Below are positions 688-19,444 of a stretch of 20,000 nucleotides of DNA, piece after piece. The notes under the pieces are model-generated. The model was not told the origin of the DNA. It was given only the letters and a program-made list of their open reading frames with translations, and ran no database searches. Numbering within the stretch: the first letter of the stretch is position 1; the number at the start of each line of letters is the position of its first letter. The stretch lies in the IMG/VR virus record IMGVR_UViG_3300007734_000750. One strand, given 5' to 3'. The position numbers and the translations under genes are program-made. The stretch comes from an uncultured virus (IMG/VR IMGVR_UViG_3300007734_000750) (lineage: Duplodnaviria > Heunggongvirae > Uroviricota > Caudoviricetes).

Positions 688-691
688 AAAT

Positions 692-722: not shown

Positions 723-744
723 TTGAAATAAAAACAGAGAAACT

Positions 745-888: not shown

Positions 889-893
889 AAATA

Positions 894-1136: not shown

Positions 1137-1139
1137 ATT

Positions 1140-1209: not shown

Positions 1210-1217
1210 CAATAAAT

Positions 1218-1289
1218 GCGTCATTGGTGAAATGGTTATCATTTTAGTCTCCAAAACTAAAGTTTCAGATTCGAGTTCTGAATGGCGTG
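1218..1289 (+). tRNA. trnW: tRNA-Trp(CCA)
   Basis: Acceptor GCGTCAT/ATGGCGT, G73, arm TTAGT-CTCCAAA-ACTAA, T-arm TCAGA-TTCGAGT-TCTGA. Confidence 0.88.
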
Positions 1290-1295
1290 CAACAT

Positions 1296-1402
1296 CCTTC
1301 TGTAGTTTAACAAGAGCAAAACACAGAGACGAATACATCTCCCTCCGGTAACCATCCCAAGAATGTATTAAGAGTATGTGGGTTCGATTCCCACTGGAAG
1401 GG
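1296..1402 (+). ncRNA. tRNA-like RNA with expanded anticodon region
   Basis: Acceptor CCTTCTG/TGGAAGG, D-stem GTTT/AAAC, T-arm GTGGG-TTCGATT-CCCAC; about 55-nt insert with AATACAT/ATGTATT stem replaces anticodon arm. Confidence 0.65.
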
Positions 1403-1472
1403 CAAGAAGACGGAGAGTGAGTCAAGGGTAATTCCGTTATGGTTATCCCTTGGGGGTCTCTCCTGAAGAATT

Positions 1473-1672
1473 AAAAAGTTTAACAACCGGGGTGTCCATA
1501 CTCTAAAAAACTAATGGACTAGTCGTGTTGATAGGGGTGACCTCCCAACAGTAGCACCGTAGAAATACGGTAAAGGATAGATAAGGACTGGTACGCCGGT
1601 GAGGAACACGACCAATTCCGGAATTCCCATTGTAGCCCGCTACGACCCAAGGGCGGGGTTGTTAAACTTTTT
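1473..1672 (+). ncRNA. Candidate 200-nt structured RNA
   Basis: 16-bp perfect closing stem AAAAAGTTTAACAACC/GGTTGTTAAACTTTTT; internal GTCCAT/ATGGAC, GTCGTGTT/AACACGAC, ACCGTA-GAAA-TACGGT. Confidence 0.6.
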
Positions 1673-1689
1673 TCTTTATATTTATCAAT

Positions 1690-2034
1690 ATGAAAAACTT
1701 TAAATTTTTAATGGATAAACTCAAGGACTATAACTTAGATTCTGAGGATTATGCGGTTTTTGGTTCCGCACCATTAGTAATTACCGGTATGATTGATGAT
1801 GTTAATGACTTAGATGTGATTATACGACCATCAAAATGGGAATTTAATGATGAAGGTGAATATAGAACCAAAGATATTGAATTTTTCAATAATTGGCCCG
1901 AATACGATATTGATGACTTAATTGATAATCATTCATTCGTTTATAATGGGGTTCGATTCATAAATCCAAAGAAAGTTATTGAATATAAAAAATCCCTTAA
2001 AAGGAATAAAGATAAAAATATTTGGGATAATTAA
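1690..2034 (+). CDS. Minimal nucleotidyltransferase (pol-beta superfamily-like)
   Basis: YAVFGSAPL...DVNDLDVII: GS plus DxD motif. Confidence 0.65.
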   Translation: MKNFKFLMDKLKDYNLDSEDYAVFGSAPLVITGMIDDVNDLDVIIRPSKWEFNDEGEYRTKDIEFFNNWPEYDIDDLIDNHSFVYNGVRFINPKKVIEYKKSLKRNKDKNIWDN

Positions 2035-2107
2035 AAATAAATCTTACCAATAATTGACTTTTTACAAAACTAACGTATATTTATTAGAAATTACAATAAC
2101 ACAACAA

Positions 2108-2182
2108 ATGCAAACTTTAAACATATTACTTACGATAGCGGGAACTGAGGGTAGAGATACAACTTGGAAGCAGATGGTATGA
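2108..2182 (+). CDS. Putative 24-aa leader peptide (MQTLNILLTIAGTEGRDTTWKQMV)
   Basis: Short ORF between a TATTTAT motif (2078) and a terminator. Confidence 0.4.
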   Translation: MQTLNILLTIAGTEGRDTTWKQMV

Positions 2183-2208
2183 TATATATTTAAGTAAAAA
2201 AAATATTC

Positions 2209-2244
2209 AAAAATCCATCTTCAAAAAAGGTGGATTTTTTTTTT
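2209..2244 (+). terminator. Rho-independent terminator
   Basis: AAAAATCCATCTT-CAAAA-AAGGTGGATTTTT followed by T run. Confidence 0.8.
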
Positions 2245-2253
2245 GTAAAAAAG

Positions 2254-2319
2254 TTTGGTATAATGAAATAAAGTATTATCTTTGTACCATCAAACTGAAA
2301 CAAGTTAATTGACATATTG
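2254..2319 (+). promoter_or_regulatory. Bacteroidota-type promoter plus boxA-like element upstream of main tRNA block
   Basis: TTTG 2254, TATCTTTG 2277-2284, GTTAATTGACATATTG 2304-2319. Confidence 0.7.
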
Positions 2320-2331
2320 GTAATATAAAAT

Positions 2332-2402
2332 GGCCCGTTAGTTTAGTAGTAGAACCTATCCCTTTCACGGATAAGAGGACGGAGCGTAACCGTTACGGGC
2401 TA
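2332..2402 (+). tRNA. trnE: tRNA-Glu(UUC), non-canonical T-loop
   Basis: Acceptor GGCCCGT/ACGGGCT, arm TATCC-CTTTCAC-GGATA, T-arm GACGG-AGCGTAA-CCGTT. Confidence 0.85.
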
Positions 2403-2407
2403 CAATT

Positions 2408-2479
2408 GGGGATATAGTATAACGGCTATTACAATGGTTTTGCAAATCGTAAATTAGGGTTCAATTCCCTATATCTCCA
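2408..2479 (+). tRNA. trnA: tRNA-Ala(UGC)
   Basis: Acceptor GGGGATA/TATCTCC with G3.U70, loop TTTGCAA, T-arm TAGGG-TTCAATT-CCCTA. Confidence 0.9.
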
Positions 2480-2578
2480 CAAAAAACAGAAAGACAGAAT
2501 ACGGGAAGTCACTACCCGGGAAACACGGTTCTTTCTCCTTCAATTGTTATAGGATTGTCACCTTTGAATTGAAATTTT

Positions 2579-2653
2579 GGTCTCATAGTTAAACGGCTAT
2601 AATATATCCCTGTCACGGATAAGTTCGGGGTTCGATTCCCCGTGGGACCGCCA
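2579..2653 (+). tRNA. trnD: tRNA-Asp(GUC)
   Basis: Acceptor GGTCTCA/TGGGACC, G73 plus encoded CCA, arm TATCC-CTGTCAC-GGATA. Confidence 0.93.
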
Positions 2654-2727
2654 TAAACAATACATTCGTGAAGTATATTTTCGGGTTGTGAAGTGGTTTT
2701 TCGGATTTTCTGTGATATTTATATTAT

Positions 2728-3273
2728 ATGGAAGAATTAAATAGATATCAGAAAGCGGCTTTAGTTAGTAATACAAGAAGTCGAGAAAAATCGTTAAATA
2801 ATTATTACGAAAACCCAAAAATTTGTAAATGTTGTAATAATCCAATTCAGGTTGGTGAAAATCAAAAAGTGAGTGATATTAGGAAGAAAGTTTTTTGTAA
2901 TAGTAGTTGTTCGGCAACATTTAATAATTTACAAAGAGAAAGTAAATTAAAAAATAAAATCAAAACACCAAAAAAAGAAAAATTTGAATATATTTTAAGT
3001 TTATCAAAAAAATTTTTAATTGAAAAACATCAAACATATCATAAATATAGGTCAGTAATTAGAAGACACGCACATTATGTCTTTAACACACATCACGAAC
3101 ATCAAGAATGTAAAGTTTGTGGATACGACACTCACATAGAAGTTTGCCACATTAAATCAGTTTCATCGTTTAGTGATGATACGTTAATAAGTGAAATAAA
3201 TTCTATTGATAATTTAATTGGGTTATGTCCTAATCACCATTGGGAATTTGATAATGATATAATAAAAATATAA
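2728..3273 (+). CDS. HNH endonuclease (free-standing homing type) with N-terminal Cys motifs
   Basis: CKCC..FCNSSCSA; CKVCGY..IEVCHIK..NLIGLCPNHHWEFD; located between tRNAs. Confidence 0.85.
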   Translation: MEELNRYQKAALVSNTRSREKSLNNYYENPKICKCCNNPIQVGENQKVSDIRKKVFCNSSCSATFNNLQRESKLKNKIKTPKKEKFEYILSLSKKFLIEKHQTYHKYRSVIRRHAHYVFNTHHEHQECKVCGYDTHIEVCHIKSVSSFSDDTLISEINSIDNLIGLCPNHHWEFDNDIIKI

Positions 3274-3277
3274 ATAT

Positions 3278-3351
3278 GGCGGGCGGACCGGTTGGTATCG
3301 GGGGTAGTCTCATAAGCTTCATAAATCAGGTTCGATTCCTGAGCGTCGCAA
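3278..3351 (+). tRNA. tRNA(CAU), degenerate Met/Ile2
   Basis: Loop CTCATAA and T-arm TCAGG-TTCGATT-CCTGA; acceptor and anticodon stems imperfect. Confidence 0.6.
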
Positions 3352-3365
3352 CTAAGAATAAACAT

Positions 3366-3438
3366 CGCAGGATAGAGCAGTTGGCAGCTCGTGTGGCTCA
3401 TAACCATAAGGTCGGAGGTTCGAGTCCTTCTCCTGCTA
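3366..3438 (+). tRNA. trnM: tRNA-Met(CAU), initiator-like
   Basis: C1.T72 mismatch, D-stem GAGC/GCTC, arm TGTGG-CTCATAA-CCATA (only two of the three G-C pairs). Confidence 0.88.
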
Positions 3439-3460
3439 CTAATTTAATAACTAAATCCGT

Positions 3461-3634
3461 ATGGCTACAGTAGCAAAAAGGTCAAGACAACAAAGAGTTC
3501 TTGAAATGTTGGAGAAACAATTGAAAAATGGTGTAAAAACCGAAAAAGGAACACGAGATGTGAAAGTTCCATTAACTGATTCTGATAAGAAGAGAATCAA
3601 CAAAGAGATTGAAACTCTTAAAACAAAAGTATAA
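3461..3634 (+). CDS. Small basic hypothetical protein, 57 aa (MATVAKRSRQQRVLEML...)
   Basis: Manually translated ORF with phage-like codon usage; not in ORF track. Confidence 0.7.
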   Translation: MATVAKRSRQQRVLEMLEKQLKNGVKTEKGTRDVKVPLTDSDKKRINKEIETLKTKV

Positions 3635-3683
3635 ACTTATAGATTTAAAATTTAAATTTATTTTCAAGGTATAAGTTTAATTT

Positions 3684-3755
3684 GCGAATGTCGTATAATG
3701 GTCATTACTCTTGACTTCCAATCAAGGGATGAGGGTTCGATTCCCTCCATTCGCT
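3684..3755 (+). tRNA. trnG: tRNA-Gly(UCC)
   Basis: Acceptor GCGAATG/CATTCGC, U73, arm CTTGA-CTTCCAA-TCAAG. Confidence 0.93.
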
Positions 3756-3756
3756 C

Positions 3757-3957
3757 AAAAATAGGGAAAAAGTAATTATATGAAGTAACCTTCGGGGACA
3801 CTGCCGGAACCCTCTAACACATAGGTTGGTGAAAAGTATGATGAAAGACAACGGCGCACCGGTCATCCATCTGGGAGTAATTACCCATAACGGACGTGGA
3901 GATGAAGTCACAACTCCTTAAGACCGCAATGGTGAAAAATTTGGTCGAACTATTTTA
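3757..3957 (+). ncRNA. Candidate 200-nt structured RNA
   Basis: GC-enriched spacer closed by AAAATAG/CTATTTT; hairpins CC-TTCG-GG, TGGG..CCCA, GGAG..CTCC, GACC..GGTC. Confidence 0.4.
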
Positions 3958-3960
3958 ATT

Positions 3961-4033
3961 GCCTCCATAGCATAAATGGAAATGCCACATCCTTCTAAGA
4001 TGTCCAATATTGGTTCAAATCCAGTTGGGGGTA
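3961..4033 (+). tRNA. trnR: tRNA-Arg(UCU)
   Basis: Acceptor GCCTCCA/TGGGGGT, arm ACATC-CTTCTAA-GATGT, T-arm ATTGG-TTCAAAT-CCAGT. Confidence 0.9.
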
Positions 4034-4038
4034 CAAAT

Positions 4039-4160
4039 GGTGTAAAAGGGTTGAGTGATGGTGATTTGTAGGTAACACTCCTTAATACTAGGATTGGAGA
4101 GAAGAGTTGGTGCATATCACAAGTAATTCATCGAGGTAGGTTCGATTCCTATCTACACTA
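4039..4160 (+). ncRNA. tRNA-like RNA (acceptor plus T-arm, no recognisable anticodon arm)
   Basis: GGTGTA/TACACT stem and T-arm GTAGG-TTCGATT-CCTAT enclosing about 90 nt. Confidence 0.55.
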
Positions 4161-4168
4161 CAAATAAC

Positions 4169-4243
4169 ACCCTCGTGGGCAAACGGGAAAGCCGTCTGAT
4201 TTAGGCTCAGAAGATTTTGTGAGTTCGACTCTCACCGTGGGTA
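4169..4243 (+). tRNA. trnL: tRNA-Leu(UAG), short variable region
   Basis: Acceptor ACCCTCG/CGTGGGT, A73, arm TCTGA-TTTAGGC-TCAGA, T-arm GTGAG-TTCGACT-CTCAC. Confidence 0.85.
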
Positions 4244-4248
4244 CAATA

Positions 4249-4339
4249 CATTATCATAACTCGGTGTGATACACCGCCAACTACCTCCTTAAACTACGTG
4301 GGAACTGCGGTTCTCCCAATGTGGCCGAAGTGATAATGT
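4249..4339 (+). ncRNA. Candidate 90-nt structured RNA
   Basis: Closing stem ACATTATCA/TGATAATGT; internal CGGTGT/ACACCG and TGGGA..TCCCA hairpins. Confidence 0.45.
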
Positions 4340-4398
4340 TAAAATAGTAGTTTAAGAGACAGAGTTGACTTCTACTTAAAAAAAATACTCTGCGACAG

Positions 4399-4481
4399 GC
4401 TTCCGTCGCATAGAGGTTGATTGCACCTGATTTGTAATCAGGAACCGAAAGGTCACGTTGGTTCGAATCCAACCGGAAGCT
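4399..4481 (+). tRNA. trnT: tRNA-Thr(UGU) with long variable arm
   Basis: Acceptor GCTTCCG/CGGAAGC, arm CCTGA-TTTGTAA-TCAGG, extra arm ACC-GAAA-GGT. Confidence 0.88.
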
Positions 4482-4483
4482 CA

Positions 4484-4689
4484 ATTGAGATAGAGATACT
4501 CAATAGATTTGGCATCGTTACTTAAATAATGATGTAGCTGGTGCTCCAAACGGTTTTATAGAGGGAGTCGTCGGGAAAACGGCAAGAGAACCATCTTGAC
4601 CTCCGAGTATATGGTTGACTTTTAAGCGGTAAGACGCGTTGGGTTTTGAAGAGAAAAACTGTGAATATCTACACCAAAATAATCTCATT
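4484..4689 (+). ncRNA. Candidate 200-nt structured RNA
   Basis: TGAGAT/ATCTCA and TAGAT/ATCTA long-range pairs; hairpins GCATCGTTA/TAATGATGT, CAAGA/TCTTG, GTTTT/AAAAC. Confidence 0.4.
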
Positions 4690-4700
4690 GGTGGAAACAC

Positions 4701-4785
4701 ATCCGGGTGGTGGAATGGTATACACGCTAGACTTAAAATCTAGTTTTCTGAAGAGAAATTGAGGGTTCAAGTCCCTTTCCGGATA
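4701..4785 (+). tRNA. trnL: tRNA-Leu(UAA)
   Basis: Acceptor ATCCGGG/TCCGGAT, arm CTAGA-CTTAAAA-TCTAG, long variable arm. Confidence 0.92.
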
Positions 4786-4856
4786 CTGAGTAATATTTAC
4801 AATTATGAAAAACAACCAACCCAACTCCACATAGTTTTAGCTATTAGCTAAAATTT

Positions 4857-5087
4857 ATGACTCAGAAATTGAGAATTTGGAGAGTAGTTCCCGTTAATAA
4901 CGGTGTTCAGGCTCCCACGTTTTTCGTAGAAACTACGGAAGACGGACGTGAGAAGGCAGAAGAATCTGCAATGAGACAAGCAAGATTAAAATCAGGTTTG
5001 TCTAAGTTTAAGGAATGGAAATTCCGATTGGAGAAACTCTCTGTGAGGGTTGATAAATTTGGTAGGTATGTGAAACACCACCAATAA
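4857..5087 (+). CDS. Hypothetical protein, 76 aa
   Basis: ORF on array strand filling inter-tRNA gap. Confidence 0.7.
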   Translation: MTQKLRIWRVVPVNNGVQAPTFFVETTEDGREKAEESAMRQARLKSGLSKFKEWKFRLEKLSVRVDKFGRYVKHHQ

Positions 5088-5126
5088 GTTGACATATGTT
5101 TGTGGGTTCATTAAAAACCCATAATT

Positions 5127-5198
5127 GGTCTCGTAGCTCAAAGGTGGAGCAGTTCGCTCATAACGAAAAGGATGGGATATCGTGATTCCCCGAGACCA
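5127..5198 (+). tRNA. tRNA(CAU), Ile2 or elongator Met, non-canonical T-loop
   Basis: Acceptor GGTCTCG/CGAGACC, loop CTCATAA, T-arm GGGAT-ATCGTGA-TTCCC. Confidence 0.85.
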
Positions 5199-5203
5199 CA
5201 ACA

Positions 5204-6344: not shown

Positions 6345-6815
6345 ATGGAAAATAATATGAAACCCCCCTGTAGAATATATCTTGATGATGTAAGAACTCC
6401 GACTGGCGATAATTGGATTGTTGTAAGAAATTACGATGAATTTGTTGTGGAAGTTAATAAAATTGGGTTGGAGAATATTGATATAATTTCTTTGGACCAC
6501 GATTTAGGTGATACTGCAATGAAAGAATATTTTGATAATGTTTCACCAAATTATACTTTGGATTACAGTAATATTCACGAAAAAACCGGTTATGATGCTA
6601 TTAAATTTTTGGTATCATTATTTCACAATACAAATGAAGAGAGATTTAATATGACAAGAAGTGAGAGAAAGGCTAATAAATTTGTGTTCCCAATTGTGTA
6701 TGTTCATTCTGCCAATCCAATCGGGGCGGGAAATATAATGGGTTTTTGTAACAATTTTTTAATGAACGAGGGTCAAGCGCAAACTTGTGTAAGAGTCCGA
6801 ATACCACACGTATAA
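6345..6815 (+). CDS. Cyclic-phosphate-processing receiver-domain protein
   Basis: IYLDDVR, ISLDHDLG, TGYD, VHSANP.G motifs; TATCTTTG element at 6321-6328. Confidence 0.8.
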   Translation: MENNMKPPCRIYLDDVRTPTGDNWIVVRNYDEFVVEVNKIGLENIDIISLDHDLGDTAMKEYFDNVSPNYTLDYSNIHEKTGYDAIKFLVSLFHNTNEERFNMTRSERKANKFVFPIVYVHSANPIGAGNIMGFCNNFLMNEGQAQTCVRVRIPHV

Positions 6816-7324
6816 TGAATATATTTTTCTTAGATGAGAATCCGACTTTGTCGGCAAAATACCACGTAGATAAACACGTAGTTAAAATGATTTTGGAAAC
6901 GGCTCAGTTATTGTGTTCGGTTCATCACACGACCCCCCAAGTTGGCACCCAAGTTACCCCCCAAGTACCCTACAAGTTGTCACATAAAAATCATCCTTGT
7001 GCGGTGTGGGCTCGTCAGAGTTTATCAAATTATTTGTATTTGTGTGAGTTGGGATTGGAATTGGGTAAAGAATATACCCACAGGTATGGTAAGAAACATA
7101 AATCAATTGAGGTGATTGAATGGTGTATTGTAAATAGACCTAACATTCCGGACATTGGTTTTACCACTCCGGCGAGAGCGATGCCGGATGAGTTTAAGGT
7201 AGATTCTGTTGTGGAATCTTATAGAAATTATTATATGGGGGCTAAAATTAATTTAGCTTCTTGGAAAAACAGAGAAAAACCTTTTTGGTTTGGAAAAAAA
7301 GAATTAGATTTGCAGTATGATTAA
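6815..7324 (+). CDS. Pyrimidine-dimer DNA glycosylase (DenV)-like protein
   Basis: MNIFFLD..DKHVVKMILETAQLL, H.NHPC..W, YRNYY; start reassigned to ATG 6815. Confidence 0.75.
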   Translation: MNIFFLDENPTLSAKYHVDKHVVKMILETAQLLCSVHHTTPQVGTQVTPQVPYKLSHKNHPCAVWARQSLSNYLYLCELGLELGKEYTHRYGKKHKSIEVIEWCIVNRPNIPDIGFTTPARAMPDEFKVDSVVESYRNYYMGAKINLASWKNREKPFWFGKKELDLQYD

Positions 7325-7967
7325 GATAGATAAAGATAGAAAGGTATGGATTATATCCGACACTCACTTTGGACATAAGAATATATGTAGAGGAGTGACC
7401 GAATGGCGTCTTCCTGATGGAAGTGTTCCAATATCTCAAACAAGAGATTTTAATACAATAGAACAGATGAACGAAACAATCGTCAATAACATTAATAGTG
7501 TTGTTGGGCAAGACGATGTGTTAATTCATCTTGGGGATTTTAGCTTCGGGGGTTTTGAAAACATCCAAAAGTTCAGAGATAGAATTTTGTGTAAAGAGAT
7601 TCACCTTATATTGGGAAATCACGATACAAGCATAGAAAAAAATAGAGAGAATGTACAAGAATTATTTACAAGTGTTAGTCACTACACAAAATTGATGTAT
7701 AAATTTAAAACATTTGTTTTATTTCACTATCCTGTAACGAGTTGGGATGGATTAAATAAAGGACATATCCAACTTCACGGGCACGTACATCTCCCAACAA
7801 ATTTAAGGTTTGGTAAAGGTAAAAAAATGGACGTTGGTATGGATGGTCACCCAACATTTGGCGTGTATGATATTGATGATATTATACGAATAATGGATAA
7901 ACGTGAGATTGCGTCGGATATGTTATTTGACCACCATACGGATGAATTAAAGGGTGTTGTTGGGTAA
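7317..7967 (+). CDS. Calcineurin-like metallophosphoesterase
   Basis: SDTH, LGD, GNHD, HYP, HGHVH motifs. Confidence 0.92.
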   Translation: MIKIDKDRKVWIISDTHFGHKNICRGVTEWRLPDGSVPISQTRDFNTIEQMNETIVNNINSVVGQDDVLIHLGDFSFGGFENIQKFRDRILCKEIHLILGNHDTSIEKNRENVQELFTSVSHYTKLMYKFKTFVLFHYPVTSWDGLNKGHIQLHGHVHLPTNLRFGKGKKMDVGMDGHPTFGVYDIDDIIRIMDKREIASDMLFDHHTDELKGVVG

Positions 7968-8576
7968 AAGGGGGATTTTATCCCTCTTTTCTAAATTGTC
8001 CCACCACCATAATGGTTGTAAATTAGTATAATGACAAAGTTTTTTTAATTCTTCATCATTTTTTGCGGAAGATAGGGGGGTAATATGGTCAATATGCCAA
8101 CCAAATTGTCCGTGATTTTCCCAAGACATTTCACCGGTAAATTTATTTTCTAAATGTAATTTTAATTCTATTGGAGAACAACCAATTAAATCAAAAGTTT
8201 TTTCTTTTTTTGTTTTTAAAATTTTATGTATTTTTGACCTATAAAGAGTTTTTAATTTAAATACTGGGTCATTTTTTTTTCTTTCACGAAGAGCTTTATT
8301 TAATCTATCTTTATTTTTTCTAACCCACTCTAATTTTCTTAAACTAATTCTTTCTTTGTTTTCAGTCGCATATTTGGAGGTTCTTTTTGATATTTTTGTT
8401 TTATTATCCTCTCTATATTTTTTATCGTATTCTTTTCTAATATCTTTTCTATTGTTTTGATATAATTTAACACAAATTTTACAATTAGATACTTTACCTA
8501 ATTTACCCTTACTTGAGTTATGAAATTCACATAATTCTTTTTCAATTTTACACTTAGTACAAATCTTTGATTCCAT
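7947..8576 (-). CDS. HNH-type endonuclease with N-terminal Zn motif (copy 1)
   Basis: CTKC..CKIC; WHIDHITPLSSA..LCHYTNLQPLW..DNL.K. Confidence 0.85.
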   Translation of the reverse strand: MESKICTKCKIEKELCEFHNSSKGKLGKVSNCKICVKLYQNNRKDIRKEYDKKYREDNKTKISKRTSKYATENKERISLRKLEWVRKNKDRLNKALRERKKNDPVFKLKTLYRSKIHKILKTKKEKTFDLIGCSPIELKLHLENKFTGEMSWENHGQFGWHIDHITPLSSAKNDEELKKLCHYTNLQPLWWWDNLEKRDKIPLLPNNTL

Positions 8577-8709
8577 AATATTTTCTTAATAATTTTTCAA
8601 TTAATTTTGATTTATTGGTTAAATCATCTTCCATTTTTTTGTTAATTTCCGGAGTTAAAGTTATGGATACTTTAACACGCTTGTCTTCTTCTTTTAATGT
8701 TGGTCTCAT
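8554..8709 (-). CDS. 51-aa ribbon-helix-helix-like protein (MRPTLKEEDKRVKVSITL...)
   Basis: Manually translated; alternating beta strand then NKSKLIEKLL helix; paralog at 19425-19577. Confidence 0.75.
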   Translation of the reverse strand: MRPTLKEEDKRVKVSITLTPEINKKMEDDLTNKSKLIEKLLRKYYGIKDLY

Positions 8710-8784
8710 ATATATAAATATACGGAAAAAATGTAAAATACTATTTTTATTAAAAAAAAATGTTTATCTTTGTAAAAAAATAAT

Positions 8785-9048
8785 ATGTTAAACACAAGAG
8801 TAGAAGACAACCACTTTAATGAAGATGATTCATTAATATCGTCACGGATTATAATTGAGGTTCCATTATCTCACGAAATGTTACAAGATTGTTATTCGTA
8901 TGCAGCAATGGATGCACCATCTGAAATTAAAAGAATGTTGATGGAATTTCTTGGTGATACAATTGATGAAATCATTTTAGGTAAAAGACCTGATAATGTT
9001 GATGAACAATGGTTAAGAAGAAAACTAATAGAAGTAAAAGTAATATGA
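8785..9048 (+). CDS. Hypothetical protein, 87 aa
   Basis: ORF after TATCTTTG (8765-8772). Confidence 0.75.
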   Translation: MLNTRVEDNHFNEDDSLISSRIIIEVPLSHEMLQDCYSYAAMDAPSEIKRMLMEFLGDTIDEIILGKRPDNVDEQWLRRKLIEVKVI

Positions 9049-9335
9049 GAATTAAACAAACAAAAAAAGATTTATTTGTGTGTTCCTGTCATAACACGGA
9101 ACATCAAATGGTTGTCCTATATGATGAGGACGATATTGATGGTGTAAGATTTCCAATGGTTTATATTCACACACATTTGGTTAAACGCCCATTTTGGCAA
9201 AGAGTTGGTTATGGATTGAAATATATTTTTGGACATCAATCAAGATACGGAGCGTTTGATGAGTTCATCATTAATCCTGATGACGTTGAAGGTATTGAAA
9301 AAATTGTTAAATATTTAAAAGAATGTGAATTATGA
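9045..9335 (+). CDS. Hypothetical protein (start likely MRIKQ)
   Basis: ATGA overlap coupling with both neighbours. Confidence 0.75.
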   Translation: MRIKQTKKDLFVCSCHNTEHQMVVLYDEDDIDGVRFPMVYIHTHLVKRPFWQRVGYGLKYIFGHQSRYGAFDEFIINPDDVEGIEKIVKYLKECEL

Positions 9336-9727
9336 AAGAGTTATTTTTATTGAGAGGATTACCGGGAAGTGGTAAATCAACATTGGCAAAAATGTTAGTT
9401 GGTGATAAAGATTATTGTCACAAAGAGGCGGATATGTATTTTGTCGATAGGGATGGTAACTACAAATTTGATGTTACATCATTAAGAGATGCTCACGCTT
9501 GGTGTCAAGAAGAAGTTGAGTTCCTTATGAAATACGAACATAAAGTTGTAGTATCAAATACATTCACCCAAGAGTGGGAAATGACACCTTATTTTGAATT
9601 AGCGGAAAAATATGGTTACAGAGTTCATTCACTTATTGTAGAGAATAGACACGGAGGTGTTAATGTACACGGGGTTCCGGAAGATAAATTGGAAATAATG
9701 AAAAATCGTTTTGAAACGAAACTTTAA
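9332..9727 (+). CDS. P-loop kinase (polynucleotide-kinase/AAA_33-like)
   Basis: LRGLPGSGKST Walker A, EAD, VVVSNTF, HGVP motifs. Confidence 0.85.
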   Translation: MKELFLLRGLPGSGKSTLAKMLVGDKDYCHKEADMYFVDRDGNYKFDVTSLRDAHAWCQEEVEFLMKYEHKVVVSNTFTQEWEMTPYFELAEKYGYRVHSLIVENRHGGVNVHGVPEDKLEIMKNRFETKL

Positions 9728-9760
9728 TTCCATATCTTTGTCCCCTAAAATTATTTAACT

Positions 9761-10090
9761 ATGAGCGGAGGAGCATTTGATTACAACCAATATAAGATTG
9801 GTTACATCGCAGACCAAATAGAGCAAACAATTATTAAGAATGGTCTTGAGAAAACACAAGAAGAACTTAAAAACGAAAGTTGGAGAGACGATTCTTGGTA
9901 TGAAAAATACCCTGAGGACTTCTTCCATTACAAATACCCGGATGAGGTTATTGAGAAGATGAAAGAGGCGGTTAAAGCTCTTCATATTGCTCAAGAATAC
10001 GCTCAACGAGTGGATTGGTTATTATCAGGTGATGATGGTGAGGAATCATTCTTAAGTAGATTGGAAGAAAATTTGAAAAAAATAGAATAA
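9761..10090 (+). CDS. Hypothetical protein, 109 aa
   Basis: ORF after promoter TTTG 9710 / TATCTTTG 9733; MSGGAFDY..DWLLSGDDGE. Confidence 0.8.
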   Translation: MSGGAFDYNQYKIGYIADQIEQTIIKNGLEKTQEELKNESWRDDSWYEKYPEDFFHYKYPDEVIEKMKEAVKALHIAQEYAQRVDWLLSGDDGEESFLSRLEENLKKIE

Positions 10091-10091
10091 G

Positions 10092-11117
10092 ATGTTAGAA
10101 AAACTAAACAAATATTACGAAGACGGGTTACTTTACAAACAAGTACATCCATACCTCCCATTAACCATATGGAACTATTCAGAAAAGTGCCAATATGAAA
10201 ATCTTTGGGACGAAACTCTTTTGATGTGTAGAGGTTTAGTTACCGACCATACCGGAGACATTGTTGCAAAACCTTTTGATAAATTCTTCAACATAGAGGA
10301 AGGAAAATTTGAACCAACTGAAAAGTTTGAGGTTTATGAAAAAATGGATGGCTCACTTTTAATAGTTTTTTGGTATGAGGGTCAATGGGTGGTTGCCACT
10401 CGTGGGTCATTTGGTTCAGACCAAGCAATTAAGGGTAGAGAATTACTTAAAAAATATAACACCGACATAATGTTCAGACATCAGACTTTCTGCTTTGAAG
10501 TTCTCTATAAAAATAATCGTATAGTGGTAGATTACGGTGATTATGAAGGGTTAGTCCTATTAGGAACCTTTGATAAGAATGGTAAAGAATATGATGTGGA
10601 AATGTGGAGAGAATACGGGTTTGATGTGGTTAAAAAATACGATGGTATCAATGACTACAAACAACTAAAAGAAATGGTTAAAAACGACCAAGAGGGGTTC
10701 GTAGTGAAGTTCTCCAATGGGGATAGAGTCAAAGTTAAAGGTGCCGAGTATCTTCGTCTTCACAAAATAATGACCAACGTCACTACAACCGGAGTTTGGG
10801 AGTATTTAAAAAATGGTGAAGATGTTTTGGAATTATTAAAAGATGTTCCGGACGAATTTTATAAAAAAATTCAAAACTATGTTAAAGAATTAAGATATGG
10901 TTATTTTCAAATATCTGAAGATGCGGGTAAAAAGTTTGACGGTAAAATGTATGGTAAATACAACGACAAAGAACCTATTGAAGATAGAAAAGAGTTTGCT
11001 GAGTGGGTATTAACCCAACCTAAACATATGTCAGGGATTCTATTCAGAATGTTTGATAAAAAAGATTACTCTGAAATCATATGGAACCTAATCAGACCGG
11101 AATTTAAAAAACTATAA
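10092..11117 (+). CDS. T4 Rnl1-like RNA ligase
   Basis: CRGLV, KFFN, EKMDGS (motif I), TRGSF, EGFVV, VKVK..EY. Confidence 0.9.
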   Translation: MLEKLNKYYEDGLLYKQVHPYLPLTIWNYSEKCQYENLWDETLLMCRGLVTDHTGDIVAKPFDKFFNIEEGKFEPTEKFEVYEKMDGSLLIVFWYEGQWVVATRGSFGSDQAIKGRELLKKYNTDIMFRHQTFCFEVLYKNNRIVVDYGDYEGLVLLGTFDKNGKEYDVEMWREYGFDVVKKYDGINDYKQLKEMVKNDQEGFVVKFSNGDRVKVKGAEYLRLHKIMTNVTTTGVWEYLKNGEDVLELLKDVPDEFYKKIQNYVKELRYGYFQISEDAGKKFDGKMYGKYNDKEPIEDRKEFAEWVLTQPKHMSGILFRMFDKKDYSEIIWNLIRPEFKKL

Positions 11118-11904: not shown

Positions 11905-13890
11905 TTATATTCCTCCATCTGTTATTGTCCAACCGTAACCACCACTTAATGTTGAACCTGTTAATATTGCTTTTCCGGCAGAACCTTCTGATGTATATTT
12001 AATTGAACCAAAGTTAATTGTTAGTCCGGTTTTTGGGTTTTTGGTTGACCAACCATTATATATTAAATTTAAATTAGTTGATGAATAATTTAAATTAGTT
12101 TTATTAATCATAAAATAATTAAAATCAGTTACTCCGGATATATTCCAACTTCCAATAGGTTGATTAAATGATGTTGCATTTGCAAACATAGCGTTCATAT
12201 TTGTAACACCAGAAACATTCCAATTATTAATTGATGATGAACCACCATTATTAAACGACGTGGCGTTTGAAAACATAGCAAGAGTAAATGTGTTTTTTGA
12301 TAAATCCCAATTCCCAATATTTTGATTAAATACCGTCGCACCCGCAAACATTTGTTGTGTATTTGTTACTTTTGACGTATCCCAACTTCCAATAGGTTGG
12401 TTAAATGACGATGTTAAAAACATATTTGCCATACTAAGAACATTTGAAGTTGTCCAACCACTTATTGATGGAGACCCTTCATTATTAAAAGATGATGAAG
12501 AGAACATACTTGTCATACCAGTAACACTTGAAACATTCCAATTCCCAATATTTTTGTTAAAATTTGTTGCCGATTGAAACATACTACTCATATTAGTGAC
12601 ATTTGAAACATTCCATCCCGATAATGGTTGATTAAAAATTGTTGCATTTCTAAACATATTCTCCATTCTAGTGACCCCTGAAACATTCCAATTTCCAATT
12701 GGTTGGTTAAAATTTGAGTTACCATAGAACATATAATCCATTCTAGTGACCTTTGAAACATTCCACCCTGATAATGGTTGATTAAAATTTGATGCTAATT
12801 GGAACATACCATCCATTCTAGTGACCCCTGAAACATTCCAAGAACTAATTGATTGATTAAAATTTGTACAACCAGCAAACATATTAAACATAGTAGTCAC
12901 TTTTGAAACATTCCAAGAACCAATTGGTTGATTAAAATTTACGCAATTAGAAAACATACCTGTCATACCAGTAACATTAGATACGTCCCAACTATTTCCG
13001 TTATTAATAGTTGTTAACGACGTACACTGATAAAACATATAAGTTAAATCTGGTGTGTTTGATAAATTTAGTGTATCAGTAACACCTGTTAAAACTAAAT
13101 TAGTACATTGATTAAAATAATAACCTGGATAAGTGTTAACATTATTTGATAATATTATATTACCCCACTGTTTAATCTCAAGAATATTACTTGCGTTGGG
13201 TAGTGATAAAAATCTAAATCCTATAATGGTTCCGGTAATTTTAATGGTGTATATTCCGGCATTTGTATAAATGTGTTGTCTATTACTATATGAATTAGTT
13301 GATTGACTACCATCACCCCAATCAATGACCCCGGTATATGTTCCGTCGGGTAAGTAAGGTAACGAGATTGTTTGATTAGTATTTGCTGACCAAGTTGAAA
13401 TGAATGAATATGTTGGTGTTGTTCCTGACCCCTCCGTTATTTCTAATTGATATAATGTATCGTAAGGAATATTTTGATTTAATGAATTTAAATAAAGTTT
13501 TGATAATAACAACATTGTTGTATCATCGGAAAATTGTGAAAGACCTAAATTACCTAACGTAACTTTAATAACATTAACTTTAGAATTTTGACTAATAACA
13601 GGGTTTAATGGGTCGGTATTATTAACACCATCACCGGTTACACTTTGAACCCCACTACCACCAGAAACAGGCCCCCAACTTGCATTACCTGAACCATCTG
13701 ATGTTAATACATATCCTGCTTGTTCAGAACCATTCGAAAATTTAAAACTTGAGATAATTGTTAATCCGGATAAAAATATTGGATTAACGGGAATACCCCC
13801 ACCAATACGGTAAATATTACCGGTTGATAGGTCAGATTGGAGAACATAATTATAAGAATCCTTAATTAATTGATTAGAAATATCAGACAT
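11905..13890 (-). CDS. DUF285/BspA-type repeat protein with PKD-like domain, putative virion adhesin
   Basis: About 12 repeats FNQPIGxWNVSxVTxMxxMF; IDWGDG..H.Y...G.Y; N-terminal GYVLTSDGSGNASW fibre-like motif. Confidence 0.85.
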   Translation of the reverse strand: MSDISNQLIKDSYNYVLQSDLSTGNIYRIGGGIPVNPIFLSGLTIISSFKFSNGSEQAGYVLTSDGSGNASWGPVSGGSGVQSVTGDGVNNTDPLNPVISQNSKVNVIKVTLGNLGLSQFSDDTTMLLLSKLYLNSLNQNIPYDTLYQLEITEGSGTTPTYSFISTWSANTNQTISLPYLPDGTYTGVIDWGDGSQSTNSYSNRQHIYTNAGIYTIKITGTIIGFRFLSLPNASNILEIKQWGNIILSNNVNTYPGYYFNQCTNLVLTGVTDTLNLSNTPDLTYMFYQCTSLTTINNGNSWDVSNVTGMTGMFSNCVNFNQPIGSWNVSKVTTMFNMFAGCTNFNQSISSWNVSGVTRMDGMFQLASNFNQPLSGWNVSKVTRMDYMFYGNSNFNQPIGNWNVSGVTRMENMFRNATIFNQPLSGWNVSNVTNMSSMFQSATNFNKNIGNWNVSSVTGMTSMFSSSSFNNEGSPSISGWTTSNVLSMANMFLTSSFNQPIGSWDTSKVTNTQQMFAGATVFNQNIGNWDLSKNTFTLAMFSNATSFNNGGSSSINNWNVSGVTNMNAMFANATSFNQPIGSWNISGVTDFNYFMINKTNLNYSSTNLNLIYNGWSTKNPKTGLTINFGSIKYTSEGSAGKAILTGSTLSGGYGWTITDGGI

Positions 13891-16677: not shown

Positions 16678-16832
16678 AAACTACTTGAGTAAGTGGGAGT
16701 GGTCAATCAACAACCCAAAGAAGTTTCAGGTAAAACTATATTTAAAAGAGGACGGCCGAGCCTATAATAGAGTAAGTAGGAAGTTAGTGTTTTTTAAGAA
16801 GATTGAGTCAGTTTTTAACATTAGCGAAACAT

Positions 16833-16934
16833 AGTCAGGAGACCATTGGTTGGTATCACCTCCCCAAGGTTGAGTAGCGGTAAGGCCGACTCTTTATGGC
16901 AAAGACGGAACAGGTTCGAATCCTGTCCTGACTA
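16833..16934 (+). ncRNA. tRNA-like RNA with multiple hairpins in place of anticodon arm
   Basis: Acceptor AGTCAGG/CCTGACT, T-arm ACAGG-TTCGAAT-CCTGT; internal ACCA/TGGT, ACCT/AGGT, GAGT/ACTC stems. Confidence 0.65.
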
Positions 16935-16948
16935 CTAAATTAAATTAT

Positions 16949-17086
16949 ATGGCAACATTAGAAACACAATACAAGAATTATATGAGAATTCACCCGGAAT
17001 CAAAATTTACGTTTGATGAATGGAAAGAGGCGTGGGGTAAAGAACTTAAAGAAGCATTAACAGAACTTGAAAAAAAACAAAAATAA
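16949..17086 (+). CDS. Hypothetical protein, 45 aa (MATLETQYKNY...)
   Basis: Manually translated ORF. Confidence 0.65.
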   Translation: MATLETQYKNYMRIHPESKFTFDEWKEAWGKELKEALTELEKKQK

Positions 17087-17088
17087 TT

Positions 17089-17247
17089 ATGGAAACAGTT
17101 ATATTACAATTTGGATTGATGGTATTAAACCTATTCTCCGCAAAAACACAAAAAGAAAATGGTAAAAATCCTGCATTCAGTTATTTTGTATCCGGAATGT
17201 GTTTTAGTTTTGGTTTAATAAAATTAATAGAATTATTTTTAAAATAA
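17089..17247 (+). CDS. Small membrane protein, 52 aa (METVILQFGL...)
   Basis: Manually translated; two hydrophobic segments. Confidence 0.6.
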   Translation: METVILQFGLMVLNLFSAKTQKENGKNPAFSYFVSGMCFSFGLIKLIELFLK

Positions 17248-17308
17248 TTTGACAGATTAAAATAAAAGTATTATCTTTGTAGAAGAAATAAAGTTCTTAA
17301 AATTATTG
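17248..17308 (+). promoter_or_regulatory. Bacteroidota-type promoter plus boxA-like element
   Basis: TTTG 17248, TATCTTTG 17272-17279, GTTCTTAAAATTATTG 17293-17308. Confidence 0.7.
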
Positions 17309-17316
17309 AAAAAATA

Positions 17317-17391
17317 GGTGGACGTTGTGTCGAGGATTCAAATCCCTCCGGTCTTAACCCCGTAGCTCAGATGGTAGAGCATACGTCCACT
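17317..17391 (+). ncRNA. Circularly permuted tRNA-like RNA 1
   Basis: Terminal stem GGTGGACGT/ACGTCCACT; order GTC, T-arm (GAGGA-TTCAAAT-CCCTC), looped acceptor, D-arm (TA-GCTC-AGATGGTA-GAGC). Confidence 0.8.
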
Positions 17392-17401
17392 AACTTATAA
17401 T

Positions 17402-17492
17402 GACACTGTAGCTCAGTGGGAGATTTATTTCCCTTGGTAGAGCAGGAGTAACGAAAGACTCTGTGCCATAGGTTCGAAGCCTGTCGGTGTCA
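17402..17492 (+). ncRNA. Deviant tRNA-like RNA (D-loop hairpin insert, 8-nt anticodon loop)
   Basis: Acceptor GACACTG/CGGTGTC, D-stem GCTC/GAGC with GGGAGA..TTTCCC insert, GGAGT-AACGAAAG-ACTCT, T-arm ATAGG-TTCGAAG-CCTGT. Confidence 0.75.
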
Positions 17493-17496
17493 CAAA

Positions 17497-17585
17497 ATGT
17501 GTAGTGTAATGTCGTTGGTTCGATTCCAACAACCGTAATCGTGATGACCAAGGTTTAGCTATAATGGTAGAGCGTACACACACAT
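17497..17585 (+). ncRNA. Circularly permuted tRNA-like RNA 2
   Basis: Terminal stem ATGTGT-A-GTGTA/TACAC-ACACAT; GTC, T-arm GTTGG-TTCGATT-CCAAC, AACC..GGTT looped acceptor, D-arm TA-GCTA-TAATGGTA-GAGC. Confidence 0.8.
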
Positions 17586-17592
17586 AATTTAT

Positions 17593-17822
17593 TCTGTGAT
17601 AAGATAGCAGATAGACCTATTACAGCAGAACCCCATAGGGAGTCAGAAATGACGAGCAATATGGAGCCCCTATCAGATTACAGTTGAGGAGGTACTCAAA
17701 GATAACCGTGAGGTTAACAAGAAATAAACGATGGTTTGGGTAGAACAGATGTTAAAGGCGAGTTTTAGGTAGTACAGAATGGGTGACCTACGAATGAGTA
17801 AATCTTAAGGTCTTATCACAGA
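17593..17822 (+). ncRNA. Candidate 230-nt structured RNA
   Basis: 12-bp closing stem TCTGTGATAAGA/TCTTATCACAGA; GTCA-GAAA-TGAC, TAACC-GTGA-GGTTA, TTGAG/CTCAA, TAGGT/ACCTA. Confidence 0.7.
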
Positions 17823-17857
17823 TTAAAAAAAAAATAAAAAAAAACTTTACAAAAGTG

Positions 17858-17930
17858 TTTGACAAATGAAAAAAATCACTTACCTTTGTAAAACAAATGA
17901 GGAAAACCTCAAGACGTTCTTAGAAATTTT
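17858..17930 (+). promoter_or_regulatory. Bacteroidota-type promoter plus boxA-like element
   Basis: TTTG 17858, 19-nt spacer, TACCTTTG 17881-17888, GTTCTTAGAAA from 17916. Confidence 0.7.
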
Positions 17931-17931
17931 A

Positions 17932-18772
17932 GATTATCCTTTACCCACTTCGGTGGAGTAAAAAACGATAATTGGCTGTGTATAGTCATCAAATAAACTC
18001 AGAAATGAGGATTAAAGTGGAACCATCAGTGTTATTGGTTCTGCGGCTTCTGAAAGGGAGCTCGAGTACACAAGTGGGATATCAGTGAGCCTGTAGTACC
18101 GAGGATAACTTCGTAGGGAAATGGAAAACTGAATGGGCAATGTGGATTGTCTGTTTGAGGTGGGAACACCAAAAAAAATAACCCATAGGGATTATGTGAG
18201 AAGTAAAGTTATCCGACTTTATAATTGCGGGTTCCAACTTAATAGGTATCTTAAAATCGAAAGGTAAGATGAGTAACAGGTGGTGCTGTCATCATCCTTA
18301 TCAATCACCCACCAAGGTGATGGTATGAAGATGTCTTGAAAAGTGGAGATAGGGATATCTCATCGAGAAGTTTAGTATTTTGTCTCTCAAAAGGAGACGA
18401 AGCTTATGGTAGACTACTTCTTGAACACATCCACAACACAATTACTATTTTCAATATGGTGAAAAACTAAAAGAAACATAGCAAAAATGTCTACCCGATG
18501 TCATTGACAAGTTGCCTACTTAGTTATGGGATGTCCATAGCACACAAAGACCGCAAGTTAATGTGTATTCTTACCAAAAACCTCTACGGAGTCGAATCCG
18601 GAGTCAGGTCGCAAGCTTGAAGAGAGTTGAATAATGAGAGAGTAAATGATATCGTAAGGAGTGATTAGTCTAACTAATCGGCAATGAGGATTACATCCCA
18701 AAAGGGTGTGGAAAAGAAGTCAAACAATAAAACTTCTAAAGATTCTCAATAAGACGAGTATTCTCATCGTAT
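17932..18772 (+). ncRNA. Large (about 840 nt) ornate RNA, GOLLD-like
   Basis: No ORF of 60 aa or more; dedicated promoter and terminator; many GNRA/UUCG hairpins; size and tRNA-rich phage context fit GOLLD. Confidence 0.65.
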
Positions 18773-18778
18773 TAAGCC

Positions 18779-18812
18779 AAAAAGGTGTTACAGTAATGTG
18801 ACACCTTTTTTT
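18779..18812. terminator. Bidirectional terminator
   Basis: AAAAAGGTGTTACA-GTAA-TGTGACACCTTTTT. Confidence 0.88.
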
Positions 18813-18814
18813 GT

Positions 18815-19444
18815 TTATAATATTTTATCACCTTTACTTAAATTATCAAATGCCCATAGTGGTTGTAAATTTGTGTAATGACATAACTGATAAATTTCTT
18901 CATCAGTTTTTGCCGAAGATAAAGGAATTTTATGGTCAATATGAATATGTTGACCTAATAATTCCCAAGACATACCTTCAGTAAATTGATTCTCAATGTG
19001 AATCTTAAGAAATTCCGGTGAACAACCCACAATATTTATAGTGTTATTTCTTTTGGTTATTTTTCTAATTCGTAAAAATTCATTCAGACGACATCTTACT
19101 AGTGTTATTAAATGATATTGTGAATCATTTTTTCGTTTATTTTTCATATAATTATTAATATATTCCTTATTGTTCTGTCTCCACTTACGATTGTTATTTT
19201 CAATTTTTTCTTTGTTATTTTCTTTATATTTTTTAATTATTGTTTTATGTATTTCAGGATTATTTATCTTAAATTGTTTGTTATAAACAGGATATTTATT
19301 TGGATTTTGAGTTCTCCAAACTTTGTGGTAAAACTTAATACAACTTTTACATTCACTTCGCAGACCATCATTAGAATCTTTCCGTTTTTGAAACTCACAA
19401 AGTTCTTTTTCTTCTTTACATTTACTACAAACTTTTTTTTCCAT
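18815..19444 (-). CDS. HNH-type endonuclease with N-terminal Zn motif (copy 2)
   Basis: CSKC..CKSC; HIDHKIPLSSA..LCHYTNLQPLW..DNLSK; paralog of 7947-8576. Confidence 0.85.
   Translation of the reverse strand: MEKKVCSKCKEEKELCEFQKRKDSNDGLRSECKSCIKFYHKVWRTQNPNKYPVYNKQFKINNPEIHKTIIKKYKENNKEKIENNNRKWRQNNKEYINNYMKNKRKNDSQYHLITLVRCRLNEFLRIRKITKRNNTINIVGCSPEFLKIHIENQFTEGMSWELLGQHIHIDHKIPLSSAKTDEEIYQLCHYTNLQPLWAFDNLSKGDKIL

Follow-up and report, generated by a model that had tools for sequence, protein, structure and literature searches.

A non-coding RNA island of a probable Bacteroidota lake phage joins rRNA-like leaders, tRNA-shaped RNAs and a GOLLD-family RNA

Why would a phage keep some 1.5 kb of its genome free of protein genes and lay it out like an operon for stable RNAs? 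The question is raised by positions 17248-18812 of a DNA stretch of 20,000 nt from an uncultured caudoviricete (IMG/VR record IMGVR_UViG_3300007734_000750). This whole stretch is called the window here, and statements about whole genomes rest on its relatives, viral contigs from IMG/VR that reach 309 kb. A sequence-only reading of the window had proposed that five consecutive structured RNAs, none of them a canonical tRNA, are co-expressed from this locus and may act together, for instance as a scaffold with tRNA mimics. The best explanation overall, which we put forward with moderate confidence in the whole of it, is that a large lake phage of Bacteroidota (~300 kb) carries at 17248-18812 an island of non-coding RNAs with two + strand transcription units, in which rRNA-style leaders head two stable-RNA units, tRNA enzymes process the products, GOLLD RNA forms a cage and the tRNA-shaped RNAs serve as decoys.

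The first unit, headed by promoter P1 and the boxA-like element GTTCTTAAAAT, encodes four abutting RNAs, namely two permuted tRNA look-alikes (el1 and el3), a cloverleaf between them (el2) and a 230-nt RNA (el4). The second unit, headed by promoter P2, a small hairpin and the boxA-like element GTTCTTAGAAA, encodes a GOLLD-family RNA of ~830 nt (Table 1). The anatomy proposed from the letters was borne out, each feature being found where it had been placed. The longest open reading frame (ORF) within the island spans at most 53 aa on either strand, in agreement with its description as protein-free; both of the supposed host-type promoters are Bacteroidota-type sites followed by GTTCTT; el1, el2, el3, el4 and the large RNA are present in that order, with A/T-rich spacers of 5-11 nt from el1 to el4; and the sole + strand terminator-like site in 16800-19000 lies at 18779-18810, which accords with the single strong terminator that had been postulated. 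Between el4 and P2 lie 35 nt rich in A. The locus goes beyond what chance would produce, since compensatory changes keep the stems of el1 and el2 paired and the large RNA falls into a curated family, GOLLD, which the earlier reading had not recognised.

Table 1. Features of the RNA island, with positions in the window.
Feature	Position	Strand	Description and basis
Promoter P1, Bacteroidota type	17248..17279	+	-33 TTTGACA, -7 TATCTTTG; predicted, pattern match
boxA-like element 1, GTTCTTAAAAT	17293..17303	+	13 nt 3' of the P1 -7 box, no hairpin ahead
el1, permuted tRNA-like RNA, YrlA-like layout	17305..17398	+	core 17317-17391; Rfam, covariation, model R1
el2, tRNA-shaped RNA	17402..17492	+	Rfam tRNA RF00005, 35 bits (cut-off 29)
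el3, second permuted tRNA-like RNA	17498..17584	+	Rfam, model R1
el4, ~230-nt structured RNA, no known family	17593..17822	+	fold z-score, conservation, RNA-library contigs
Promoter P2, Bacteroidota type	17858..17888	+	-33 TTTGACA, -7 TACCTTTG; predicted, pattern match
boxB-like hairpin GAGGAAAACCTC, P2 leader	17899..17910	+	kept in relatives with other stem letters
boxA-like element 2, GTTCTTAGAAA	17916..17926	+	one mismatch to GTTCTTTGAAA
GOLLD RNA, ~830 nt	17948..18777	+	variable 5' domain 17948-18362, conserved 3' domain 18363-18770; Rfam RF02032
Terminator, intrinsic, 14-pair stem then T run	18779..18817	+	80-100% identical in 15 loci

The "840-nt RNA" of the earlier reading is a member of the GOLLD family. 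Positions 18363-18770 reach 287.9 bits with Rfam RF02032 (cut-off 150; E 1e-81) and match the model from end to end (positions 1-416 of 416), the model itself spanning only the conserved 3' domain of GOLLD. Upstream of it, 17926-18362 is homologous at 68-83% in 81 of the 85 GOLLD loci fetched from IMG/VR for comparison, as expected of the variable 5' domain. GOLLD RNA reportedly goes back to Weinberg and colleagues in 2009. According to the available portions of recent work, it is an RNA of phages and prophages, often located beside tRNA islands, which cryo-electron microscopy resolves as multimeric cages and whose function is unknown (10.1101/2024.12.08.627333; PMC12990946). The term scaffold, which had been suggested for the large RNA, is apt in that others have shown the GOLLD family to self-assemble into cages, as stated in the accessible part of their report (10.1101/2024.12.08.627333). 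The RNA of the window would probably assemble in the same manner, judging from its family membership, cage formation being known for other members.

The GOLLD family itself and its nearness to tRNA genes are already known, and both the rRNA-operon-type leader ahead of GOLLD and the array of tRNA mimics upstream of it may be unpublished. No connection of GOLLD with Y RNAs or Y-RNA-like RNAs was found in the searchable part of the open-access literature, and the available text of one relevant article leaves the two unconnected (PMC9569102); a tie between GOLLD and antitermination was likewise not found in that open-access text, antitermination figuring in the consulted passages of one article solely within the title of a cited work. 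For permuted tRNAs together with phages, nothing pertinent appeared among open-access articles as represented by their titles and the beginnings of their abstracts. Among GenBank phage records only two match, both of them huge phages (635 and 642 kb) and both in the GOLLD part only; their GOLLD loci hold ordinary tRNAs and no YrlA-like match.

The signals ahead of both units resemble real rRNA-operon leaders, a likeness that supports the label boxA-like as well as the proposed layout of a stable-RNA operon. The promoter pattern TTTG-N19-23-TANNTTTG (TAnnTTTG) occurs six times in the window, always on the + strand, as compared with 1.37 expected occurrences, and none of 200 shuffles reaches six; GTTCTT lies downstream of only two of these six sites, P1 and P2. 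A scan for sigma-70-type promoters was uninformative (9 sites against 8.0 expected). The P1 site, whose architecture matches that of Bacteroidota rrn promoters, is 87-100% identical over 55-57 nt among relatives with the small-RNA cluster, and the P2 region is kept upstream of GOLLD in 78 of the 85 loci (blastn). Retrieval with a GOLLD motif gave 59 distinct loci, 49 of which have at least 1500 nt of upstream DNA. In 39 of these 49, GOLLD is preceded by a promoter (TTG..TAnnTTTG), a small hairpin and GTTCTTnnAA, and in 32 by the exact GTTCTTTGAA, which is the GTTCTTTGAAA motif. The hairpin of the P2 leader takes other forms in relatives (TCGGAAACGTCCGA, CAGGAAAAGTCCTG and TTAGGGAAACCTAA), its stem covarying.

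The same arrangement was sought in bacterial and archaeal genomes, as TAnnTTTG followed after 15-45 nt by GTTCTTTGAAA, which gave at least 120 stretches, 80 of them fetched. In eight of the fetched loci GTTCTTTGAAA stands 72-164 nt before the 5' motif of a 16S rRNA gene; seven of these eight belong to Bacteroidota (including Sediminibacterium and Chitinophagaceae) and one to Bacillaceae. At least six further Bacteroidota-type promoter matches lie less than 200 nt from the end of their contig, as is often the case for rRNA operons. The rrn leaders of Bacteroidota have a hairpin ahead of GTTCTTTGAAA that is placed as in the P2 leader. In rRNA operons, boxA mediates an antitermination that depends on NusB and NusE, and boxA sequences are known for Escherichia coli as well as Bacillus subtilis. 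Beyond the clade of the window, four GOLLD loci (L007, L012, L027 and L044) repeat the module of promoter, hairpin and GTTCTTTGAAA two to four times before GOLLD, at distances of 100-320 nt, which suggests further unnamed small RNAs behind the same type of leader.

Matching RNA libraries exist for part of the island. Six metatranscriptome runs from lakes and other freshwater contain about half of the locus's sampled words, and four runs from four studies, chosen because they contain this stretch, were mapped; their contigs cover 17511-18777. One contig of 830 nt runs from 17948 to 18758 and differs from the window in one letter. Two studies show adapter letters directly beside 17948, and one study shows them beside 18777, which suggests that RNA ends at these positions. 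Other contigs start within el3, at 17511 and 17514, and contigs at 17511-17759 and 17594-17752 fall on el4. The proposal that the RNAs are co-expressed and act jointly thus stood in part: the contigs bridge el3 and el4, and the idea of an obligate five-part unit did not survive the comparison of loci described below.

In el4, a 13-bp closing stem holds a core that is conserved and, at the apex, an insert of ~112 nt that varies; the RNA folds at -57.1 kcal/mol (z -2.92). Relatives also carry a short form of 121 nt, which misses the ~112 apical nucleotides and keeps the same scaffold (z -2.99), and 12 distinct variants of el4 occur among the loci. No Rfam family matched el4 at E values up to 5. 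A contig of run X18, compared with 17629-17758 of the window, lacks 128 nt, in whose place stand 16 other letters, as in the short el4 of L099 and L142; both forms of el4 therefore occur in lake samples.

What, then, are the tRNA-like RNAs of the first unit? In el1, a 9-bp terminal stem encloses a T arm, a loop-closed acceptor-like hairpin and a D arm; el3 differs in having a terminal stem of 10 bp with a bulged A and a longer acceptor-like hairpin. An alignment of ten el1 homologues (A4) holds 22 pairs, with 92.5% of cells paired and five pairs changed on both sides, and its covariation score is reached by none of 500 shuffles. The terminal stem is paired throughout (100%), three of its nine pairs being doubly changed (GGACG/CGTCC, GGGTG/CACCC, GAGTG/CACTC), and the T stem and the acceptor-like stem contribute one doubly changed pair each. 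A covariance model built from el1 (R1) gives 108.6 bits with el1 of the window and 39.1 bits (E 3.6e-07) with el3, copies of el3 scoring 36-41 bits. A loose el1 pattern run against IMG/VR returned at least 112 stretches, mostly ordinary tRNAs; R1 was applied to 61 of them and to 10 other loci. Strong matches not known before were limited to L164 and L179, both with an el1-like copy and L179 also with an el3-like one. Three weaker matches (L153, L088 and L137, at 21-32 bits the three best of the weak ones) were rejected as el1, having unpaired ends and being tandem tRNAs.

The best Rfam match of both RNAs is YrlA (RF02553), at 34.5 bits for el1 and 26.4 bits for el3, each under the cut-off of 69; el1 copies of relatives reach 37-42 bits. 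The YrlA model is known to pick up tandem tRNAs falsely, as noted in the available text of its description (Chen et al. 2014, PMC4201824). The gap between T stem and D arm of el1 measures only 12-25 nt (12-14 for the majority of variants, 25 for the L024 group), which argues that el1 is not made of two tandem tRNAs. It is unlikely, in our view, that el1 and el3 are true Y RNAs, which would bind host Ro60/Rsr and thereby redirect or block RNA surveillance (for example by Rsr with PNPase) and shield structured phage RNAs. Besides the Rfam matches, such an identity would fit the order of the arms and the terminal stem, which are as portrayed for YrlA in the accessible sections of the literature (PMC4201824), the RNA-repair genes nearby, given that Y RNAs of Salmonella sit in an RNA-repair operon according to the available part of another study (PMC7790460), and the existence of TROVE proteins in Bacteroidota. 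It is opposed by scores that stay far under the cut-off and by the lack of the motif GNCGAAN0-1G in 17305-17602, a stretch that includes el1 and el3; near the YrlA 5' end this motif is the likely Rsr contact, as far as the available text states (Chen et al. 2014, PMC4201824). The partner protein speaks against it as well: TROVE (Ro60/Rsr), whose gene would be expected on the same strand as a YrlA and no more than about 4 kb from it, was found neither among the 25 likely genes of the window nor in six related viral records, two of which are estimated to be 100% complete (304 and 309 kb), and it occurs in only 13 of 201 sampled Bacteroidota genomes, so that most candidate hosts would be devoid of it. 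Owing to the sub-cut-off scores, the missing motif and the missing TROVE gene, el1 and el3 are not placed in YrlA; the layout alone fits, and as judged from sequence they would work like the tRNA-mimic module of YrlA while not being members of that family. The description of the small RNAs as tRNA mimics is supported.

How firmly the five RNAs belong together can be read from other phages. Retrieval with an el2 motif gave 31 stretches, 21 of them distinct. In all 21, el1 lies upstream of el2, and in 19 GOLLD lies downstream of the pair; of the other two, one contig ends too early and one has its GOLLD ~68 kb away. The latter is the 145.5-kb contig G007 (locus L090), with its el1-el4 cluster at ~13-15 kb and GOLLD at 82306-82711. 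The remaining elements are less constant: el3 is present in six of the 21 loci (and in four of the 11 cluster-bearing loci searched with R1), and el4 is long in seven, short in six and absent in eight. Seen from the side of GOLLD, el1/el2-type RNAs are found in 11 of the 49 loci with enough upstream DNA (10 contigs), and el1 to el4 are all missing in the other 38, many of which have a tRNA-Met gene adjoining GOLLD instead. Identity also varies from part to part of the island: the window and L059 agree at 99.6% in el4, at 99% in the 3' domain of GOLLD and at 78% in its 5' domain. The five-element synteny that had been suggested as a check was thus found for the el1-el2 core with GOLLD downstream and not for el3 and el4, which are optional, nor for most GOLLD loci. 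Since el3 and el4 come and go, identities are mosaic and most GOLLD loci have no el1 to el4, the island consists of RNA cassettes that can be exchanged around an el1-el2 core, constant within one phage clade, and is no fixed five-part unit.

These comparisons bear on the possibility that the small RNAs and GOLLD form one complex, in which the cage would hold the tRNA-shaped RNAs as cargo or have them docked on it, for instance through the GAAA loop of el2 or the GNRA hairpins of el4. The adjacency of el1 and el2 to GOLLD in nearly all of the distinct loci would suit such a complex, as would the GNRA-type loops conserved in el2 and el4; in addition, published work speculates, in its available portions, that cages hold phage tRNAs and mentions tRNAs embedded in some GOLLD linkers (10.1101/2024.12.08.627333; PMC12990946). 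We nonetheless consider it quite unlikely in view of the 38 GOLLD loci without any of the four small RNAs, the separation by ~68 kb in one relative, the coming and going of el3 and el4 and the mosaic identities, which show that parts are exchanged independently. Nor are the small RNAs complementary to GOLLD beyond chance: the longest complementary run is 8 nt, and runs of at least 8 nt appear in 199 of 200 mononucleotide shuffles. A related and bolder thought, which we rate as a long shot, sees GOLLD cages and anticodon-less tRNA mimics as two halves of one phage strategy, the mimics, whose elbow is intact and which have GNRA-type loops where an anticodon would stand, docking on or in the cage or loading it with host tRNA-binding factors. 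If this were true, the phage would build a compartment purely of RNA, in which part of the host tRNA or translation machinery is captured during infection, and the pairing of GOLLD with permuted tRNA modules, upstream of it here, would be functional and not accidental.

It is very improbable that the small elements are functionless remnants of a decaying tRNA array, such as pseudogenes or fused halves of tandem tRNAs. This view could draw on the richness of the phage in tRNA genes, on the false positives that tandem tRNAs produce with the YrlA model, as reported in the accessible text (PMC4201824), and on the inspected weak R1 matches elsewhere, which are tandem tRNAs; it founders on the compensatory changes that keep terminal, T and acceptor stems paired, on the el1 gap, which in most variants leaves no room for two 7-nt acceptor strands and a discriminator, and on the preservation of the elements, at 70-100% identity in 21 distinct loci, behind a conserved promoter and leader.

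The cloverleaf el2 is tRNA-shaped in most of its parts, with a 7-bp acceptor stem, a discriminator A, a normal T arm and, within the D loop, a 6-bp hairpin (an insert of 20 nt). Its alignment (A3) comprises 28 pairs with 95.7% of cells paired and 12 pairs changed on both sides, which none of 500 shuffles reaches; all arms are supported, and the D-loop hairpin is 98.3% paired across 10 relatives. The 3' end is that of the phage's own tRNAs, 12 of the 13 true tRNAs in the window having the discriminator followed by CAA or CTA with no encoded CCA, and a complete relative encodes a CCA-adding-type nucleotidyltransferase. In place of a 7-nt anticodon loop stands the 8-nt loop AACGAAAG, which contains no U33. 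Relatives have CTCGAAAG, TTTGAAAG and AACGAAAT, the 5' half of the loop varying (AAC, CTC, TTT) and GAAA being kept; in L063 the stem is longer and capped by a 4-nt GGAA loop. The ARAGORN annotation of el2 as tRNA-Pro(tgg) was rejected, as its stems are mismatched and the name varies in relatives (Thr(ggt) or undetermined); for the same two reasons, the statement that none of the RNAs is a canonical tRNA holds. It is scarcely credible that el2 is a working decoding tRNA, for example one that reads four bases through an 8-nt anticodon loop and so suppresses frameshifts, or one that contains small introns, because its passing of the Rfam tRNA cut-off, the ARAGORN call, the full acceptor stem, the discriminator and the tRNA-like 3' context are set against a would-be anticodon with no U before it, a loop whose 5' half is free to vary while GAAA is kept, the GGAA loop of L063 and an anticodon call that is both mismatched in fold and inconstant.

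With these alternatives weighed, we return to the favoured explanation of an RNA island with rRNA-style leaders, for which the following course of events can be proposed. The boxA-like leaders, by their resemblance in sequence, are predicted to recruit the NusB/NusE antitermination machinery of the host, which would allow long, untranslated and highly folded transcripts to escape Rho and to fold during their synthesis. The transcript from P1 would then be cut into units by tRNA-processing enzymes at el2, with RNase P acting at its 5' end and, at its 3' end, RNase Z or exonucleases together with CCA addition, as might be expected from the 3' context that el2 shares with the real tRNAs of the phage. 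GOLLD would assemble into a multimeric cage like its solved homologues. The three tRNA-shaped RNAs, which keep the elbow and have no anticodon, may draw off host factors that recognise the shape of tRNA, as decoys or sponges that do not themselves decode. Such decoys would fit a wider programme for taking over tRNA and translation, of which the 13 tRNA genes and the RNA-repair set in the same 20 kb could be further parts.

Several observations weigh against this explanation. The boxA-like elements depart from the GTTCTTTGAAA of rRNA leaders, at three of 11 positions in element 1 (GTTCTTAAAAT) and at one of 11 in element 2 (GTTCTTAGAAA), and the P1 leader has no hairpin and only 13 nt between its -7 box and GTTCTT. 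The RNA-library evidence consists of assembled contigs, which are no proof of transcription, strand or level; the contigs of the four mapped runs leave el1, el2 and the majority of the flanking protein genes uncovered, a result that is uninformative as to absence or level. As el3 and el4 are dispensable in relatives, any joint role of the RNAs is optional. Finally, the loci with the cluster all belong to one phage clade, so that common descent, and not selection, may account for the order being conserved.

The surroundings of the island are rich in genes for tRNA and its maintenance. The window holds 13 ordinary tRNA genes at 73-5199, and two HNH endonuclease genes lie within this array (178-687 and 2728-3273); a trio of HNH gene, tRNA cluster and GOLLD was reported for mycobacterial tRNA arrays in the accessible part of an earlier article (PMC9569102). 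Between the tRNA array and the RNA island, at 6345-11117, stands an RNA-repair set composed of a cREC_REC (cyclic-phosphate processing) protein, a calcineurin-like phosphoesterase, an AAA_33 kinase-like protein and a T4 Rnl1-type RNA ligase. At 11905-13890, on the - strand and hence opposite to most genes of the window, a protein of 661 aa is encoded, which contains four DUF285 repeats (E 1e-101) and matches PKD weakly. Transfer-messenger RNA (tmRNA) genes were seen ~2 kb from GOLLD in relatives, at G001:C1:51497-51893 and further in L019, L027, L029, L044, L049 and L052 (74.9 bits in the nearest relative); the window ends short of the matching position.

Further small RNA elements occur beside those of the two units. 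A sixth tRNA-shaped element at 16833-16929 (+) combines an 8-bp acceptor stem (TAGTCAGG/CCTGACTA) and a T arm with an odd body; it obtains only 19.7 bits with the Rfam tRNA model and has nine variants in relatives, all with the acceptor and T stems kept. As this element stands directly before P1 in L003, L063, L094 and L059, the two small ORFs at 16949-17247 of the window are an optional insert. Relatives carry additional cassettes, between el1 and el2 in L011 and L052 and before P2 in L024, L049, L052 and L059, among them a 170-nt RNA closed by TTCTAA/TTAGAA, a 70-nt RNA with its own Bacteroidota-type promoter and an 80-nt element starting with TTAGTTAATAGGG; these extra cassettes have no Rfam match at E values up to 0.001.

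The locus offers concrete handles on the function of GOLLD, whose cage is solved: a natural GOLLD present in RNA libraries with likely ends, a leader whose sequence would point to the host machinery for rRNA antitermination and folding, and conserved neighbouring tRNA mimics as candidate partners or cargo. At the same time, phage-borne "inside-out tRNA" RNAs that do without Ro60 suggest that YrlA-like mimicry is used more widely than for the binding of Ro60.

Altogether, the island can be compared with five known systems. With GOLLD it shares the whole 3' model, the variable 5' domain and the total length of ~830 nt, and it is phage-borne, located beside a tRNA island and HNH endonuclease genes and present in lake RNA libraries; there is no essential difference, the RNA of the window being a member. 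The tRNA cluster of phage T4 contains small stable RNAs, namely species 1 and 2 (rnaC and rnaD). They may offer a lead, in that they too are stable RNAs encoded by a phage and processed together with its tRNAs. The boxB-boxA leader of rRNA operons has in common with the island the Bacteroidota promoter, the small hairpin seen at P2 and GTTCTT(T/A)(G/A)AAA in the same order, and differs in what follows, since the signals of the window precede phage non-coding RNAs and not rRNA.

tRNA-like structures act as processing signals in longer transcripts, as in the tRNA punctuation of mitochondria, the mascRNA of MALAT1 and the spacer tRNAs of rRNA operons. The cloverleaf el2, with its intact acceptor stem and elbow, is likewise set between other RNAs at spacers of 5-11 nt, and by analogy putative cuts of RNase P and RNase Z at el2 would free its neighbours; unlike a mere cutting signal, however, it keeps a covarying D-loop hairpin and a GAAA loop, which cutting would not need. 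From YrlA, el1 and el3 differ by scores under the family cut-off and by their place in a multi-RNA array beside GOLLD and not beside rsr. They resemble it in having a loop-closed acceptor stem between the T arm (with the variable region ahead of it) and the D arm, in RNA ends that pair where the anticodon stem would stand, and in the conserved letters of the T-loop and D-loop elbow, as these traits are given in the available text on YrlA (PMC4201824).

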